DNA of 64,000 nt from Deinococcales bacterium (GTDB taxonomy: Bacteria; Deinococcota; Deinococci; Deinococcales; JAAFIG01), in the NCBI GenBank assembly GCA_025352125.1, contig JANXTZ010000028.1, forward strand, positions 15,922-79,921, written 5' to 3'. Both the position numbers and the translations under genes were made by a program. Every line of letters begins with the position of its first letter. The first letter of the stretch is position 1. The notes below the pieces were generated by a model. It was given only the letters and a program-made list of their open reading frames with translations, was not told where the DNA came from and searched no databases. Below, in pieces: positions 53,016 through 64,000 of this stretch.

Positions 53016-54455
53016 TTAAATCACCATTGAAACGTATTTCACGTACAGGTATTCCTCGAGTCCAAAATGTCCACCCTCACGACCAAAACCGCTTTGTTTG
53101 ATGCCGCCAAAGGGCGCTTGGGCGGTGCTTGGAATCGGGTCATTTAAGCCAACAATCCCGTACTCGAGTTTTTCTGAAACCCGCACGGCTCGAGACAAAT
53201 CTTTGGTCCAGACGTAGGCGGCAAGTCCGAACGGTGTGTTGTTGGCGGCGTGCAGAACCTCGGCTTCGGTGTCGAAGGCAATCACGGGTGCGACGGGTCC
53301 AAACGTTTCCTCGCGCATCACCAGCATGTCTTCGGTCACGCCCGCAAGCACGGTGGGCTGGAAGTACAGTCCCTCGAGTGCCGAGCCGCCCGTCACAGCA
53401 GTTGCGCCGTGCAAGAGTGCATCCGCAACATGGGTTTTGACCTTTGCAAGTCCCTGGGCATCCACCAGTGGTCCAATTTGGGTGCTGGGATCGAGTGAAT
53501 CGCCCACTTTCAAGCCCGAGACGGCGCTGGCAAATTTGGCGGTGAACACCTCGAGAATGCCGCGTTGGACGTAGACGCGGTTGGTGCAAACGCAAGTCTG
53601 ACCGGCGTTGCGAAATTTACAGGCGACCACATCTTTGACGGCTTGTTCAATGTCAGCATCGTCGAAGACAATGAACGGCGCGTGACCACCAAGTTCCATC
53701 GAAACGCGTTTTAAGGTGTCGGCGCTTTGTTTGGTCAGGATGCGACCCACCTCAGTCGAACCCGTGAAGGTGATCTTGCGGATTCTCGAGTCCTCCATGA
53801 AGACTTTGGACAGCGCGATTGGGTCGGCGCAAGGCAGCACCTGAAAGACTCCCGCAGCACCGCCAGCCTCGAGCCAGAGTTCCGCGAGTTTGAGGGCGGT
53901 CAACGGGCTTTGCTCGGCGGGTTTGAGCACGAAGGTGCAGCCCGCCGCGAGCGCAGGACCGACTTTGCGGGTCAGCATTGCCGCCGGAAAATTCCAGGGC
54001 GTCACCGCGTACACCGGACCGACAGGATGCTTGCTGGCGAACAAGCGCTTGTGCCCAAACTGGCTGGGAATGATCTCGCCGTACACGCGCTTGGCTTCCT
54101 CGGCGTACCACTCGATAAAACTGGCGGCGTAACGCACCTCGCCCAGCGCCTCGGAGACAGGTTTTCCCATCTCGAGCGCAATCATTCGCGCAATTTCTTG
54201 CTCGTCACGAACCATCAGCGCGAACCATTTTTTCATTAACGCAGATCGCTCATACGCCGTGGTGTTGCGCCAAGTTTCAAAGGCAGTCACGGTTGCCTCG
54301 AGCGCCAAGTTTGCCTCGGTCACGCCGCAATCTGCGACCTGCGCGATGACCTGCCCTGTGGACGGACTGGTGAGCGGATACGAACTGGCTGGACTGACCC
54401 AACCTGTAGCGATGAGTGCCTTGGTCTGTCCTTGAAACTCGAGTGTCGCTGTCAT
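53016..54455 (-). CDS. gabD: NAD(P)-dependent succinate-semialdehyde dehydrogenase-like ALDH
   Basis: TPWNFP, FTGSTEVG, MELGGHAP, FRNAGQTCVC and EETFGPV motifs. Confidence 0.88.
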   Translation of the reverse strand: MTATLEFQGQTKALIATGWVSPASSYPLTSPSTGQVIAQVADCGVTEANLALEATVTAFETWRNTTAYERSALMKKWFALMVRDEQEIARMIALEMGKPVSEALGEVRYAASFIEWYAEEAKRVYGEIIPSQFGHKRLFASKHPVGPVYAVTPWNFPAAMLTRKVGPALAAGCTFVLKPAEQSPLTALKLAELWLEAGGAAGVFQVLPCADPIALSKVFMEDSRIRKITFTGSTEVGRILTKQSADTLKRVSMELGGHAPFIVFDDADIEQAVKDVVACKFRNAGQTCVCTNRVYVQRGILEVFTAKFASAVSGLKVGDSLDPSTQIGPLVDAQGLAKVKTHVADALLHGATAVTGGSALEGLYFQPTVLAGVTEDMLVMREETFGPVAPVIAFDTEAEVLHAANNTPFGLAAYVWTKDLSRAVRVSEKLEYGIVGLNDPIPSTAQAPFGGIKQSGFGREGGHFGLEEYLYVKYVSMVI

Positions 54456-54473
54456 GGAATCCTCCGTGAAATT

Positions 54474-55466
54474 TTACCTGGCGCTGCGCGGAATGCGGTT
54501 GATGTGATGATCGTTGATGACATCACAGGGTGTGTACTGACGGTCTATCTCGAGCAGTTCAGACTCAGTCAATTTCAACTCGAGTGCCGCGATTTGCTCA
54601 TCCATCTGCGCGACATTATCTACCGCAAACAGGCTGCTTGTCACGCCAGGGCGGTTGATGACCCATGAAAGTGCGACCTGGGAACTGCTCACCCCTCGAG
54701 CCTCAGCCACGCCCGCCACAGCTTTGGCAATGTGATGCGACGTTTGATCGCCGAACTGATCTTGCGTGAAATTGTCGGTTTTGTTGCGTAGACTCTCGAG
54801 GTTTCCAGACAGCAAACCTCGAGCAAGCGGTGAGAACGGCGTGACCGCAATCCCCTGATCCTGGCAGAACGGAATCATCTCGCGCTCCTCCTCGCGGTAG
54901 GCGGCATTCAACTGGCACTGCATCGAAACGAATTCCGACCAGCCGCGCAAGCGTGAGGTGTAAATCATTTTCGCAAACTGCCAGGCGTACATGGTGCTCG
55001 CGCCGATGTAGCGCACCCGACCCGAACGCACGATATCGTTGAGCGCCTCGAGCGTCTCCTCAATGGGCGTGAACAGGTCAAAACCGTGAATGATGTACAA
55101 ATCCAGATAATCCGTGCCAATGCGTTTAAGTGAGCCGTCAATCGCAGTGAGCAAATGCTTTCTCGAGAGTCCGCCATCGTTCGGACCAGTCCCCATCGCG
55201 TAATAGGCTTTTGACGCCAGCACCAACTGATCTCGAGGGACGCTGCCCAACAACGTCCGCCCGACAACCTCCTCGCCCACGCCGCCAGAGTAAAAATCTG
55301 CCATGTCAAAAAAATTGATGCCACGCTCGAGCGCGTGCTTTAAAATTGGGGTGCTTGCAGCTTCATCCAGCACCCAGGGACGCCATGCGGGCGTGCCGAA
55401 ACCCATCGTGCCCAGGCACAATTTTGAGACTTTCAGACCAGTCTTGCCAAGATTCACATACTCCAT
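54474..55466 (-). CDS. Aldo/keto reductase (YajO-like)
   Basis: LGKTGLKVSKLCLGTM, FFDMADFY, GLSRKH and VRYIGAS motifs. Confidence 0.92.
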   Translation of the reverse strand: MEYVNLGKTGLKVSKLCLGTMGFGTPAWRPWVLDEAASTPILKHALERGINFFDMADFYSGGVGEEVVGRTLLGSVPRDQLVLASKAYYAMGTGPNDGGLSRKHLLTAIDGSLKRIGTDYLDLYIIHGFDLFTPIEETLEALNDIVRSGRVRYIGASTMYAWQFAKMIYTSRLRGWSEFVSMQCQLNAAYREEEREMIPFCQDQGIAVTPFSPLARGLLSGNLESLRNKTDNFTQDQFGDQTSHHIAKAVAGVAEARGVSSSQVALSWVINRPGVTSSLFAVDNVAQMDEQIAALELKLTESELLEIDRQYTPCDVINDHHINRIPRSAR

Positions 55467-55473
55467 AAATTCC

Positions 55474-62460: not shown

Positions 62461-62537
62461 GAATCTCGAGTCTCCAAGGAAAGGCTTTTGACGTAACGAG
62501 CGATGAGGCATCACCTCACCGCCCGAGCTTAGATGGC

Positions 62538-63584
62538 TTATTTCATCATGCTGGCTTCAAGCTTTTGCGCAACGCCCGCCGGAACCCATTTGCTCCAGGT
62601 AGCTTTCTGGTTTTTCAAGAAATCCATCGCGGCATCGCTGGCGCTGATCTTGTCCTCGCTGATGCGTAAAATGGCTTTTTGAAGTTGGTTGAGGCTGAAG
62701 CTGGTCTTGCCAAAAAAACGCGTCAATGCGGCGTCGCTCTTGGCAAAATCGGCGTTCAGGTTGATGCGCAAGGTGGCTGATGGCGTGGCGCTGGCGCAGG
62801 CTTTGGGGTCGTTGGCTTTCTCGAGTTCGTAGCATTTGGCGTTGTACTTTGGTTCTTTGAGTTGAATCACGTCGTACTTGCCGAGCAAAGAGGTTGGTGC
62901 CCAGTAATAAAACAAGATTGGCTTGCCCTGCTGGAAGGCGCTGGCAACGCTTGCATCGAGTGCGGCTTGCGAGCCTGGACGGAATTGTTGGTACATGCTG
63001 TTCAGCTTGTAGGCGGTCAGTTTGCCGTCGTTGGTTTTGTCGCAGACCCAACCCGACACGCAACCCAGCAGACGTGACATGTTTGGATTCTCGTCGTCTT
63101 TGAACAAGTCCTTGTATTTTGCCAGATCAGACACGGATTTCAGGTCTGGCGCGAGCGCCTTGATGCCTCGAGCCGAATCGCCCTCGACCAGGTAACGCGG
63201 CACGAACCAACCCTCGACGGTGCCACCCTGCAAGATTTTGCCGACCAGTTTGGCTTTGCCGTCCTTGACGCCTTTGATGACAATATCGTTGAAGCCTTCC
63301 CATTCCTCAGCCCAGACGTGAAGATCGCCGTTGATCAGCGCGGTTTCGGTGACGGTGGTCGAACCGATGATGACTTCGGTTTTGCAGCCGTAACCTTTCT
63401 CGAGAATGTTGCGCAGGACTTCGGTGATGAACTGCCCGCTCTCCCAACTGATGCCCGCAAATTTGACCGTATTGCCGGCGGCACAGTATTTGGATGGCGA
63501 GTTTTGTTGGGCTTGCGTGCCGACCAGTGTGGCACTGGCGAGTAAACCTGCGGCGAGCATTATTTTTACGGCTGTCTTTTTCAT
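62538..63584 (-). CDS. ProX/HisX(HutX)-type ABC substrate-binding protein
   Basis: Signal peptide; C...VKFAGISWESG...GYGC...WAEEW...EGWFVP...C..GW.C...FYYWAP pattern; GAGGAG RBS. Confidence 0.88.
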   Translation of the reverse strand: MKKTAVKIMLAAGLLASATLVGTQAQQNSPSKYCAAGNTVKFAGISWESGQFITEVLRNILEKGYGCKTEVIIGSTTVTETALINGDLHVWAEEWEGFNDIVIKGVKDGKAKLVGKILQGGTVEGWFVPRYLVEGDSARGIKALAPDLKSVSDLAKYKDLFKDDENPNMSRLLGCVSGWVCDKTNDGKLTAYKLNSMYQQFRPGSQAALDASVASAFQQGKPILFYYWAPTSLLGKYDVIQLKEPKYNAKCYELEKANDPKACASATPSATLRINLNADFAKSDAALTRFFGKTSFSLNQLQKAILRISEDKISASDAAMDFLKNQKATWSKWVPAGVAQKLEASMMK

Positions 63585-63594
63585 ATCGCTCCTC

Positions 63595-64000
63595 TCATCT
63601 CGAGCGTGCCGTTTTGACGGGCGCACTCGGTTGATGACTGTGTTGGGGTGGTGCTGTGCTGGCAATGGTGCTGGCAAAAAATCCAAGGTTTTCAGAGATG
63701 GCTCTCGCGCCAATCAACAGATGCTCGAGTGCAATTTCAAACCGTGCGGAGCTGGGGCTGGCGACCGCCATGCAAACGCTCAACGCCGCCACCACCGCGC
63801 CGCTCGAGTCCCTGACGGGTGCGGCGATGCAGCACAAATTCAGGGCGCTCTCCTGTTTGGTGTCCGCGTAGCCTCGAGCGCGAATTTGCTCGAGTTCTGT
63901 CGAGAGTGCTTTTTGATTGGTGATCGTGTACGGCGTGATGGCGGGTAATTTCTCGAGCTTGACCGGATGAAATGCCAGCAGCAACTTGCCGACGGCACTG
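63595..64000 (-). CDS. IclR family transcriptional regulator (C-terminal part; 5' end outside window)
   Basis: SAVGKLLLAF, TPYTIT, ELEQIRARGYA and CIAAPVRD...VVAALSV motifs. Confidence 0.9.
   Translation of the reverse strand, partial: SAVGKLLLAFHPVKLEKLPAITPYTITNQKALSTELEQIRARGYADTKQESALNLCCIAAPVRDSSGAVVAALSVCMAVASPSSARFEIALEHLLIGARAISENLGFFASTIASTAPPQHSHQPSAPVKTARSR

Follow-up and report, generated by a model that had tools for sequence, protein, structure and literature searches.

A Fae-fold protein of an apparently separate clade and its candidate onium-catabolic operon in a Deinococcales bacterium

The 64,000-nucleotide stretch of Deinococcales DNA analysed here (the window, which corresponds to C34:15922-79921 of an assembly of 4.53 Mb in 84 contigs, 92.54% complete) carries a single minus-strand operon in which a homologue of the formaldehyde-activating enzyme Fae is accompanied by an aldo-keto reductase (AKR), two aldehyde dehydrogenases (ALDHs), an iron-type alcohol dehydrogenase (Fe-ADH), an enolase-superfamily enzyme with a K-x-R motif and a betaine-type importer. 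The reading that we favour, tentatively and at slightly less than an even chance, is that the operon serves the tetrahydromethanopterin (H4MPT)-independent catabolism of an imported onium compound (trimethylammonium or dimethylsulfonium, with a hydroxyl and/or a carboxyl group), the Fae-fold protein and the K-x-R enolase acting as lyases. Two statements share that estimate jointly with it and are meant no more firmly: that the Fae-fold protein does not load formaldehyde onto H4MPT, and that the locus, apart from an inserted DUF5063 gene, is a ten-gene, horizontally mobile catabolic operon.

Family, fold and clade of the Fae homologue

An AlphaFold2 model of the protein (pLDDT 94.7) matches the Fae structure 1Y60 in Foldseek with a TM score of 0.91-0.92 and a root-mean-square deviation of 1.4 A, no other solved fold being near, and the sequence is 32-33% identical to Fae of Methylobacterium extorquens (PDB 1Y5Y/1Y60). 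A search of the ESM Atlas returned solely Fae-named clusters, while HMMER found, among 1.84 billion cluster representatives, 753 Fae-family clusters at E<=1e-3 and 16 at E<=1e-30.

Within this family, six sites separate two classes. In a comparison set of 92 sequences (from the best 150 matches the 82 with a length of 150-235 residues, together with nine close homologues and a canonical Fae of Variovorax), canonical Fae reads D18 Q39 Q73 F78 F113 H158 in the numbering of the query (34 rows), whereas the class that includes the window protein reads N18 P39 H73 W78 W113 N158 (46 rows), the remaining 12 rows being mixed. One branch with an SH-aLRT value of 99 splits 40 rows from 33 in a quick maximum-likelihood tree, computed without bootstrap from 84 of the 92 rows after eight fragments had been left out. 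His16 and Gln82, the equivalents of His22 and Gln88 of M. extorquens Fae, are invariant in both classes; the 2005 structure paper reportedly describes these two residues as the acid catalyst and a pterin contact of canonical Fae, and Phe84 and Phe119 of the same enzyme as part of its cofactor clamp. The alignment and the tree place the Fae homologue in what appears to be a separate clade with a rebuilt cofactor pocket, in which two Phe have given way to Trp and a new His is present. Judging from the model, the fold is kept, and probably the oligomeric architecture of the active site as well, but not the residues that bind the cofactor.

Since the protein scores above the NCBI model for Fae, public records name it "formaldehyde-activating enzyme" or "5,6,7,8-tetrahydromethanopterin hydro-lyase", and for the Fae-like clade such naming is probably wrong. 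Fae is textbook C1 biochemistry and a marker gene of methylotrophy, so a clade that passes the curated model without methanopterin would produce false positives in methylotrophy surveys; if the onium-lyase reading were true, hundreds of such annotations would be in error.

Methanopterin markers in the genome and in other carriers

The window gene is the only Fae-family gene of its genome. Profiles for MCH, FTR and beta-RFAP synthase (PF02289, PF01913, TIGR00144) found no match in the 92.54%-complete assembly, with positive methanogen controls; a search with the Mpt_N profile carries no weight because its own control matched nowhere. At a completeness of 92.5%, the absence of the H4MPT pathway is strongly suggested, not proven, and what the preliminary description had claimed for the window, namely that the Fae homologue is an orphan with respect to H4MPT, extends for these three markers to the genome as a whole.

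Other carriers give a concordant picture, since MCH was not found in four of the five further genomes searched (two Limnohabitans, Polaromonas sp. CG9_12 and a metagenome-assembled genome (MAG) of Polynucleobacter). The fifth, Variovorax humicola, possesses mch and three Fae-family genes, of which two are canonical (240 bits), one of them about 2 kb from mch, and the third (181 bits) is separate from mch and adjoins an AKR gene. As it is the canonical Fae that stands on the mch side, the Fae-like paralogue is not the one tied to H4MPT. The window protein therefore shares with M. extorquens Fae the family (PF08714), the fold and the His22/Gln88 equivalents, but not the company: canonical Fae has mch, mtd and fhc as neighbours and needs the H4MPT pathway, whereas the window gene, with N/P/H/W/W/N in place of D/Q/Q/F/F/H, has AKR, GabD-like ALDH, enolase and importer genes around it in a genome in which that pathway was not found.

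Operon structure, conserved partners and horizontal transfer

The operon extends from 64467, past the window end, down to 53016, and every gene that the preliminary description had listed, from the IclR regulator to the GabD-like ALDH, is present and co-directional. The features are as follows (cut-offs for the Fae family: 27 bits for PF08714 and 118.05 bits for TIGR03126; SSADH, succinate-semialdehyde dehydrogenase; BADH, betaine aldehyde dehydrogenase).

63595..64467 (in the window 63595..64000, the C-terminal part), minus strand: IclR-family regulator; PF01614 127 bits, PF09339 54.8 bits
62538..63584, minus strand: OpuAC/ProX/DmpX-type periplasmic substrate-binding protein (SBP); PF04069 178 bits, best PDB match 7YLE
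61600..62514, minus strand: ABC permease, ProW/ChoW-like; PF00528, TIGR03416 272 bits (below the cut-off of 363)
60779..61603, minus strand: ABC ATPase, ProV-like, without the C-terminal CBS part; TIGR01186 343.7 bits (above the cut-off of 326.6)
59072..60649, minus strand: ALDH of PuuC/BADH/aminoaldehyde type (ALDH2); PF00171 571 bits
57936..59075, minus strand: Fe-ADH; PF00465 and PF25137
56522..57649, minus strand: enolase-superfamily enzyme (mandelate-racemase subgroup) with the motif K150-V-R152; PF13378 170 bits
55992..56525, minus strand: DUF5063 gene, accessory insertion; PF16702 95 bits
55474..55974, minus strand: Fae-fold protein, apparently of a distinct clade; PF08714 166.5 bits, TIGR03126 138.5 bits
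54474..55466, minus strand: AKR, 7 bp downstream of the Fae-like gene; PF00248 225 bits
53016..54455, minus strand: GabD/SSADH-like ALDH, last gene of the operon; TIGR01780 631.3 bits (cut-off 646.35)

Distances between genes lie between -4 and 23 bp, the exceptions being 129 bp between ATPase and ALDH2 and 286 bp between Fe-ADH and enolase.

In 23 related loci taken from reference genomes, an AKR gene adjoins the Fae-like gene 21 times; of the other two loci, one lies on a contig that ends inside the Fae gene and one has a zinc-type alcohol dehydrogenase (Zn-ADH) instead. A GabD-like ALDH is found in 18 of the 23 and also in three plasmid loci, and the K-x-R enolase in six of the 23; in Deinococcota, Variovorax and Polaromonas the enolase and Fae-like genes are direct neighbours. 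Plasmids carry the arrangements Fae-AKR-SSADH-MFS (Caballeronia), AKR-Fae-SSADH-LysR (Ensifer) and, in Streptomyces clavuligerus, a betaine-type ABC importer with Fae, a dehydrogenase of the 3-hydroxyisobutyrate dehydrogenase (HIBADH) type and SSADH, while an actinobacterial MAG, Lysinibacter, combines Zn-ADH, Fae, IclR, SSADH and MFS. The trio of Fae-like gene, oxidoreductase and GabD-like ALDH is present in Deinococcota, Beta- and Alphaproteobacteria and Actinomycetota, and the conserved core joins a Fae-like protein, an NAD(P) oxidoreductase and a GabD-like ALDH, often without enolase or alcohol dehydrogenase. Given that AKR, HIBADH-type and Zn-ADH proteins alternate at one position of the trio, the oxidoreductase has been exchanged non-orthologously with its role kept.

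The variable accessory content of these loci, and a spacer upstream of the Fae-like gene that takes foreign genes, could suggest that there is no single pathway but a lineage-specific mosaic of unrelated dehydrogenases with the Fae-like gene as a passenger. We consider this highly improbable: the same ten genes occur in the same order in L048 and L049 (numbers with L are our own for individual loci) and nine of them in L050, which has no GabD-like match; L003, L004 and L006 keep the operon order as far as their contigs extend; IclR occupies the equivalent position in L048-L050; the trio recurs in shuffled order across the four groups named above; and the gene spacings are tight or overlapping. 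The Fae-like gene occurs in only 4 of 151 sampled Deinococcota genomes, that of the window included, and the Fae-like, AKR, ALDH2 and enolase proteins of the window are 65-81% identical to Comamonadaceae proteins (window against L007-L021), two facts that together indicate inter-phylum horizontal transfer of the operon. The carriers are bacteria of fresh water, glacier streams, sediment and soil, and the clade is found in Limnohabitans, Polynucleobacter, Polaromonas, Meiothermus-like Deinococcota, relatives of Burkholderia, rhizobia and Streptomyces; some carriers are culturable, so that direct study is possible.

The partners also bear on the question of whether the protein could after all activate formaldehyde, with tetrahydrofolate, a low-molecular-weight thiol or another acceptor in place of H4MPT, and guard against formaldehyde released by oxidation of the N-methyl groups of an imported betaine or of trimethylamine. 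Such a function would accord with the TIGR03126 score, with a fold almost identical to that of Fae, with the retained equivalents of His22 and Gln88, and with a context of methyl-bearing betaine-type compounds; it would also accommodate the Zn-ADH that neighbours the gene in four actinomycete metagenome loci and in Lysinibacter, the best NCBIfam rows of which are the NDMA-dependent alcohol dehydrogenase and the mycothiol-dependent formaldehyde dehydrogenase, all below cut-off. Yet scans with Pfam and tblastn found no demethylase, amine oxidase, Rieske oxygenase, Tmm/Tdm, MttB or folate-C1 gene in the examined loci, six positions of the pocket region differ systematically from canonical Fae, the constant partners have no place in C1 handling, and in Variovorax it is the canonical paralogue that adjoins mch, all of which makes this function quite unlikely. 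No paper on the trio, or on a function of a Fae homologue independent of H4MPT, was found in a literature search that left subscription journals largely uncovered; within the same coverage, the earlier claim of an undescribed pathway stands.

The importer and its binding pocket

The SBP starts at MKKTAV, which gives it a signal-peptide-like N-terminus, the listed TTG open reading frame (ORF) being overlong. Its best solved relative is 7YLE (93.5 bits, E 1.4e-25), followed by Escherichia coli ProX, at low overall similarity. In the parts of PMC10030565 that concern it, 7YLE is the dimethylsulfoniopropionate (DMSP)-binding protein DmpX of the importer DmpXWV, with a pocket formed by W35, T64, W84, E113, W152, A153 (backbone), Y200 and W202. 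At the eight aligned positions the window SBP reads W, T, W, E, W, V, Y and W, all eight being kept, and 15 of 15 related SBPs read W, T/S, W, E, W, V/D/A, Y and W; in those of Burkholderiales, Asp occurs where DmpX holds the carboxylate of its ligand by the backbone. This alignment says that the SBP should have an aromatic cage for an onium group and that its ligand should be a small onium zwitterion, not histidine, and the pocket is the sole substrate-directed evidence at hand.

The preliminary description had likened the binding protein to HisX/HutX, a comparison that failed in every test: the nearest protein is DmpX, no HisX-type chain is among the six PDB matches, and hutU and hutH of the same genome lie on contig C17, the window being on C34. 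Its more general proposal of a catabolic operon served by a betaine-type importer is, on the other hand, well matched by the OpuAC-type importer parts, which recur in 12 of the 23 related loci.

DMSP gene clusters of the form dddD-dddT-dddB/dddA-dddC are known in Halomonas and Marinomonas. The likeness to the window operon lies in an onium importer, a lyase, an exchangeable alcohol dehydrogenase (Fe-ADH or GMC), an ALDH and a regulator of the LysR or IclR type, and the pocket of the window SBP is the same in kind as that of DmpX. The window operon differs from these clusters in having no DddD, DddP, cupin lyase or DmdA and in an ALDH that is GabD-like rather than similar to methylmalonate-semialdehyde dehydrogenase, and its carriers belong to fresh water, glacier streams and soil instead of the sea.

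The cage is also of consequence for a ring-opening role, whereby the Fae-like protein would hydrate a ring carbon between two nitrogens and so open a zwitterionic amidine or aminal ring, for example that of an ectoine-like solute, in reverse of the imidazolidine-forming Fae reaction, the product being oxidised through an intermediate of the aspartate- or succinate-semialdehyde type. Of the reactions considered this would be the closest analogy to that of canonical Fae. Ectoine catabolism proceeds by DoeABCD under the MocR regulator EnuR, and its hallmarks (EnuR, DoeD, DoeC) have counterparts in the MocR-type regulators beside the module in L012, L020 and L042, in aminotransferases near the window operon and L024, and in the GabD-like ALDH, which would act on a C4 semialdehyde in both systems. 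We nevertheless hold this role to be very unlikely, because no deacetylase or DoeA/DoeB-like gene is present, the window aminotransferase is not conserved with the operon, and the importer pocket is of a different type, its four Trp and one Tyr being typical of a cage for methylated onium groups.

The K-x-R enolase

The nearest solved relative of the enolase-superfamily enzyme is DauB (5OLC, E 4.3e-39), and the third is AtGCI (4GGB, E 8.6e-33); the second PDB match, 3SJN, bears a family name only. As far as the relevant parts of PMC5698469 go, DauB and AtGCI are cycloisomerases, and the AtGCI type has the metal ligands D194/E220/E246, the general base K166 and the acid H296. K150-V-R152 of the window protein aligns with K164-x-K166 of AtGCI, so that R152 replaces the general-base lysine, and K-x-R, not K-x-K, is found in all eight orthologues compared, the actinomycete ones included; the KVR motif that the preliminary description had singled out as unusual is thus a feature of the group. 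D181, E217/E218, E243, D266 and H293 align with D194, E220, E246 and H296 of AtGCI and are invariant in the eight orthologues, whereby the metal ligands and the His293/Asp266 pair of the mandelate-racemase subgroup are kept. Six proteobacterial and deinococcal orthologues have a ten-residue Trp-rich insertion after the first metal ligand (G185-W-R-M-P-W-D-T..P-W196). Among NCBIfam models, acid-sugar dehydratases score best, with about 130 bits, which is far under cut-off.

A single-base enolase would be better suited to beta-elimination than to racemisation, and a beta-elimination lyase or a dehydratase is the probable function of the K-x-R enzyme. DauB and AtGCI, with which it shares metal ligands and catalytic His, perform beta-elimination of an O-linked leaving group, a point that we count in favour of the onium-lyase reading, although the window enzyme has Arg at the Lys166 position and the Trp-rich insertion, and stands beside an onium importer and not among sugar-acid genes. 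The hydroxyproline-betaine pathway reportedly combines the enolase-superfamily epimerase HpbD with an OpuAC-type SBP. The window resembles it in the genetic coupling of an enolase-superfamily enzyme with a betaine-type SBP and differs in having no Rieske demethylases in the operon; since the window enolase has no second catalytic lysine, a two-base epimerisation as in HpbD is unlikely.

Two further sites carry the K-x-R enolase. In Paraburkholderia a MocR regulator and a second OpuAC SBP adjoin it, at a distance of 23 kb from the Fae locus of that contig; its neighbours in a Steroidobacteraceae MAG are a GMC oxidoreductase, ALDH2 and a GalD-like enolase.

Dehydrogenases and their replacement

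ALDH2 falls below the cut-offs of the PuuC model (619 bits against 850) and the BADH model (535 against 669); in L009, L017 and L043 it forms a pair with the K-x-R enolase. The best NCBIfam rows of Fe-ADH, all below cut-off, are ErcA (196), SarD (190) and GbsB (168), and the best PDB match of the AKR is DepB (8HWN, E 4.8e-62). The GabD-like ALDH of the window misses the SSADH cut-off (631.3 against 646.35), whereas those of L017 (698.5) and L021 (669.8) pass it.

In the Limnohabitans and Paraburkholderia loci, three other proteins stand in place of Fe-ADH, PuuC-like ALDH and K-x-R enolase. These are a GMC oxidoreductase, which reaches 606.8 with the choline-dehydrogenase subfamily model (cut-off 605) in L023 and 549.5 in L018, a GalD-like protein of the enolase superfamily (256.7 in L023; cut-off 311) and an AldA-like ALDH (490.6; cut-off 500), the last being present in the Limnohabitans locus L018 only. 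The upper enzymes are replaced non-orthologously, then, the GMC oxidoreductase taking elsewhere the role of Fe-ADH. We count the BADH/PuuC type of ALDH2, and the fact that these GMC proteins pass or come near to the choline-dehydrogenase model, in favour of an onium substrate.

These dehydrogenases would equally suit a displacement reaction in which the Fae-like protein replaces the onium group of an omega-onium acid, hydrolytically or via a lactone, to give an omega-hydroxy acid. From gamma-butyrobetaine, 4-sulfonio-butanoate, S-methylmethionine or DMSP the products would be 4-hydroxybutyrate, homoserine or 3-hydroxypropionate, which AKR, HIBADH or Zn-ADH would convert to a semialdehyde; succinate, aspartate or malonate would then be formed from it by the GabD-like ALDH, in a layout that would mirror the dddD-dddB/dddA-dddC clusters. 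The AKR, HIBADH and alcohol dehydrogenase families include known succinate-semialdehyde reductases and 3-hydroxy-acid dehydrogenases, two GabD-like ALDHs exceed the SSADH cut-off as just described, the SBP pocket equals that of a binder of DMSP, itself an omega-onium carboxylate without hydroxyl, and enzymes of the ALDH2 type make gamma-butyrobetaine or DMSP from aldehydes. Against such a displacement stand the lack, as far as we are aware, of an enzymatic precedent for hydrolytic removal of trimethylamine from a saturated carbon, the absence of any role for the K-x-R enolase, a partner of the Fae-like gene in many loci, and the Asp of the Burkholderiales SBPs, which fits a hydroxyl-bearing ligand better; on balance we regard it as unlikely.

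An unannotated gap of 820 bp between the Fae-like and HIBADH-type genes of the S. clavuligerus plasmid (L036, 9537-10357) contains what is probably the remnant of a gene, a fragment of 81 residues with 37% identity to the PuuC-like ALDH.

Actinomycete operons with hutU and hutF

A metagenome scan that used the putative fusion protein P0122 as query yielded at least 552 relatives, of which the best 80 were kept, on high-GC soil contigs. P0122 and P0124 are ENA gene models in which a Fae-like domain is joined to a K-x-R enolase by an Arg/Gly/Pro-rich linker. Such fusions would be Rosetta-stone evidence for a joint function, yet in 47 of the 47 loci with both genes the ORFs are separate, with at most 20 bases between the Fae-like stop and the point where the enolase match begins, and in most loci an overlap of a base or two; the fused models may be frameshift or gene-calling artefacts, and since they are doubtful we rely on the adjacency of the two genes only. 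The actinomycete K-x-R enolase is 45% identical to that of the window in a gapless alignment.

The 35 loci of at least 8 kb that we compared (within L058-L129) contain the enolase by construction, and in addition an SBP_bac_5 importer (20), urocanase (19), the Fae-like gene (18), Fe-ADH (18), an HIBADH-type dehydrogenase (16), an M20 amidase (14), an amidohydrolase (12) and a homologue of histidine ammonia-lyase (HAL; 6). The operon is headed by the K-x-R enolase and comprises an HIBADH-type dehydrogenase, Fe-ADH, hutU, M20 amidase, hutF and a LigB-type protein, with the SBP_bac_5 importer and the HAL homologue opposite; where the Fae-like gene is missing, no replacement gene was found in these operons, the enolase simply being the first gene. 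The urocanase of L083 passes the hutU model (898.8 against 375) and the amidohydrolase that of hutF (588 against 362), whereas the HAL homologue is far under the hutH cut-off (237 against 539) and reads S-A-G in place of A-S-G, the triad that forms the MIO cofactor.

This linkage is compatible with an enolase that yields an acrylate-type acid such as urocanate by beta-elimination, and the actinomycete operon may lead from a betaine or a derivative of histidine to urocanate. The imidazole-type substrate that the preliminary description had put forward consequently keeps some ground in actinomycetes, where the enolase heads a hutU/hutF operon, but not in the window genome, with its hutU and hutH on another contig.

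Proposed route and its weaknesses

In the route that we propose, the Fae-fold protein would attack the carbon skeleton of the imported onium compound as a lyase or hydro-lyase, and its product would pass to the adjacent NAD(P) oxidoreductase, here AKR, and on to the GabD-like ALDH, ending in a C4 or, less likely, a C3 dicarboxylate. Fe-ADH and the PuuC/BADH-like ALDH would turn an alcohol into the carboxylate on which the K-x-R enolase, as a second lyase, would perform a one-base beta-elimination of a beta-substituent; a logic of alcohol dehydrogenase, ALDH and lyase occurs twice in the window operon. Where neither oxygenases nor radical enzymes take part, the easy way to break a C-N+ or C-S+ bond would be an E1cB elimination (by way of the conjugate base) beta to a carbonyl, from a carboxylate in the case of the enolase and from an aldehyde in that of a simple general-base enzyme that recognises aldehydes, as Fae recognises formaldehyde. 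The chemistry that we favour would accordingly begin with oxidation of a primary alcohol, followed by elimination of trimethylamine or dimethyl sulfide, with either the Fae-like protein acting on the beta-onium aldehyde or the enolase on the beta-onium acid, and the unsaturated semialdehyde would be oxidised to fumarate. The linear order suggested earlier, from alcohol over aldehyde to acid and then through enolase, Fae and semialdehyde, is allowed by the data as one of several possible orders.

The single substrate that would fit best is homoserine betaine, the head group of the betaine lipid diacylglyceryl-trimethylhomoserine (DGTS), an assignment that we nonetheless rate as unlikely; the data do not discriminate between it and compounds of the carnitine/gamma-butyrobetaine type, DMSP or beta-alanine betaine, and S-methylmethionine. 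Homoserine betaine would give each enzyme of the window operon a place: its 4-hydroxyl would be oxidised by Fe-ADH or AKR, whereupon either the Fae-like protein would eliminate trimethylamine from the aldehyde and the GabD-like ALDH would form fumarate, or the BADH-like ALDH would oxidise the aldehyde and the enolase would eliminate trimethylamine, again giving fumarate. The GMC, AldA-like and GalD-like trio of the sister loci could release homoserine betaine from deacylated DGTS, the glyceryl end being oxidised to a glycerate ether and then beta-eliminated, as DauB does with a ring ether. Algae, mosses and fungi that contain DGTS are common in the habitats of the carriers, and the lipid also occurs in phosphate-starved bacteria. 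It is no less unlikely that the Fae fold was recruited as a cofactor- and oxygen-independent onium lyase which, with the K-x-R enolase, AKR and GabD-like ALDH, constitutes a homoserine betaine pathway; the literature on homoserine betaine and trimethylhomoserine, with the coverage stated above, consists of lipid and algal papers and contains no bacterial catabolic pathway.

Several points weigh against the onium-lyase reading, in which the substrate and all catalytic roles are inferred and which we keep just short of an even chance. We know of no enzyme of the Fae fold that cleaves C-N+ or C-S+ bonds, the Fae homologue lies above the cut-off of an NCBI equivalog-domain model (138.5 against 118.05), and, the His22 and Gln88 equivalents being kept, a pterin- or formaldehyde-linked role is still conceivable. 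The favoured route leaves a redundancy of two alcohol-level oxidoreductases and two ALDHs. L050 and L020 have no GabD-like gene, and sequence identity between the window's GabD-like ALDH and its counterparts in the Comamonadaceae loci, which are divergently transcribed there, is no more than 49-54%. As 17 of the 35 actinomycete operons do without the Fae-like gene and many proteobacterial loci without the enolase, consecutive action of the two is not required; and the actinomycete operons, which contain no ALDH and are joined to hutU/hutF instead, are not explained by the homoserine betaine scheme.

With fold and family known, the clade and its partners are new and the reaction is probably new as well. 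The trio, the one-base enolase and the DmpX-like importer amount to a testable pathway for a charged methylated nutrient in fresh water, cryosphere and soil, and if trimethylamine or dimethyl sulfide were released without oxygenases or radical enzymes, this would be a new route to volatiles relevant to climate and health. Should homoserine betaine prove to be the substrate of an onium lyase, a missing bacterial pathway would have been found and, for fresh water and soil, a new enzyme-based source of trimethylamine.

Other known routes were considered and set aside. Conversion of carnitine via crotonobetaine to succinate semialdehyde by hydration of a vinyl-ammonium has, we reason, an unfavourable regiochemistry; pyridoxine degradation needs oxygenases, which are absent; a Weimberg-type sugar-acid route disagrees with an importer of the onium type; and a route with an ergothioneine thiohydantoin desulfhydrase disagrees with the actinomycete urocanase, a true HutU (898.8 bits against 647.7 with the thiourocanate hydratase model).

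The DUF5063 insertion, intergenic spacers and operon end

DUF5063, which the preliminary description had taken for a pathway member, is a strain-specific accessory insertion outside the conserved operon. It lies in a 1-kb block with a GC content of 0.46, against 0.51-0.58 around it, and is absent from seven related Deinococcota operons (L003-L006, L048-L050); its ATG overlaps the enolase stop (ATGA). Its sole structural match is an uncharacterised Bacteroides protein (3NRH, E 1.3e-7), and a literature search on DUF5063 found nothing related. In two sediment metagenome runs (X3 and X4, perhaps a single data set deposited twice), one contig passes directly from 55994 to 56524 and so skips 529 bp, the DUF5063 ORF, at a depth of 6 against 17.6 for the form that contains it; with a shorter side of 30 letters and 90% likeness at the joint, this is a weak hint of presence/absence variation.

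The short spacer between enolase and Fae is a landing site for small foreign genes. In the Deinococcales MAG loci L003-L005 a palindromic repeat of 170-280 bp separates the enolase stop from the Fae ribosome-binding site, in a further Deinococcales MAG (L006, 6097-6528) an unrelated ORF of 143 residues without a Pfam family occupies the spacer, and in three other Deinococcota genomes (L048-L050) the gap is about 20-25 bp. Searches of PADLOC and PHROGs for defence and phage functions gave no match for either DUF5063 or the L006 ORF.

EamA and aminotransferase genes downstream (50858-52857) have a counterpart in none of the 23 related loci, and we accordingly place the operon end at 53016; terminator-like sites in a promoter/terminator scan were at chance level (16 seen, 16.1 expected). 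The pyridoxal-phosphate enzyme within 50858-52857 has as best NCBIfam rows the aminotransferase PRK07324, the cyclodehydratase GntC and the capreomycidine synthase VioD, all below cut-off; the ORF listed for it is much overlong and extends into the EamA frame.

The spacer between Fe-ADH and enolase (57652-57935) contains palindromic repeat units, one of which resembles the enolase-Fae spacer element of L003-L005 and another a segment of the L004 spacer. An ORF of 103 residues (57646-57957) that overlaps this repeat matches no family and is unlikely to be a gene. In four metagenome runs the contig depth climbs from about 45 to 130-1600 at 57652-57800, which points to a high-copy intergenic repeat, akin to miniature inverted-repeat transposable elements or repetitive extragenic palindromes (MITE/REP-like).

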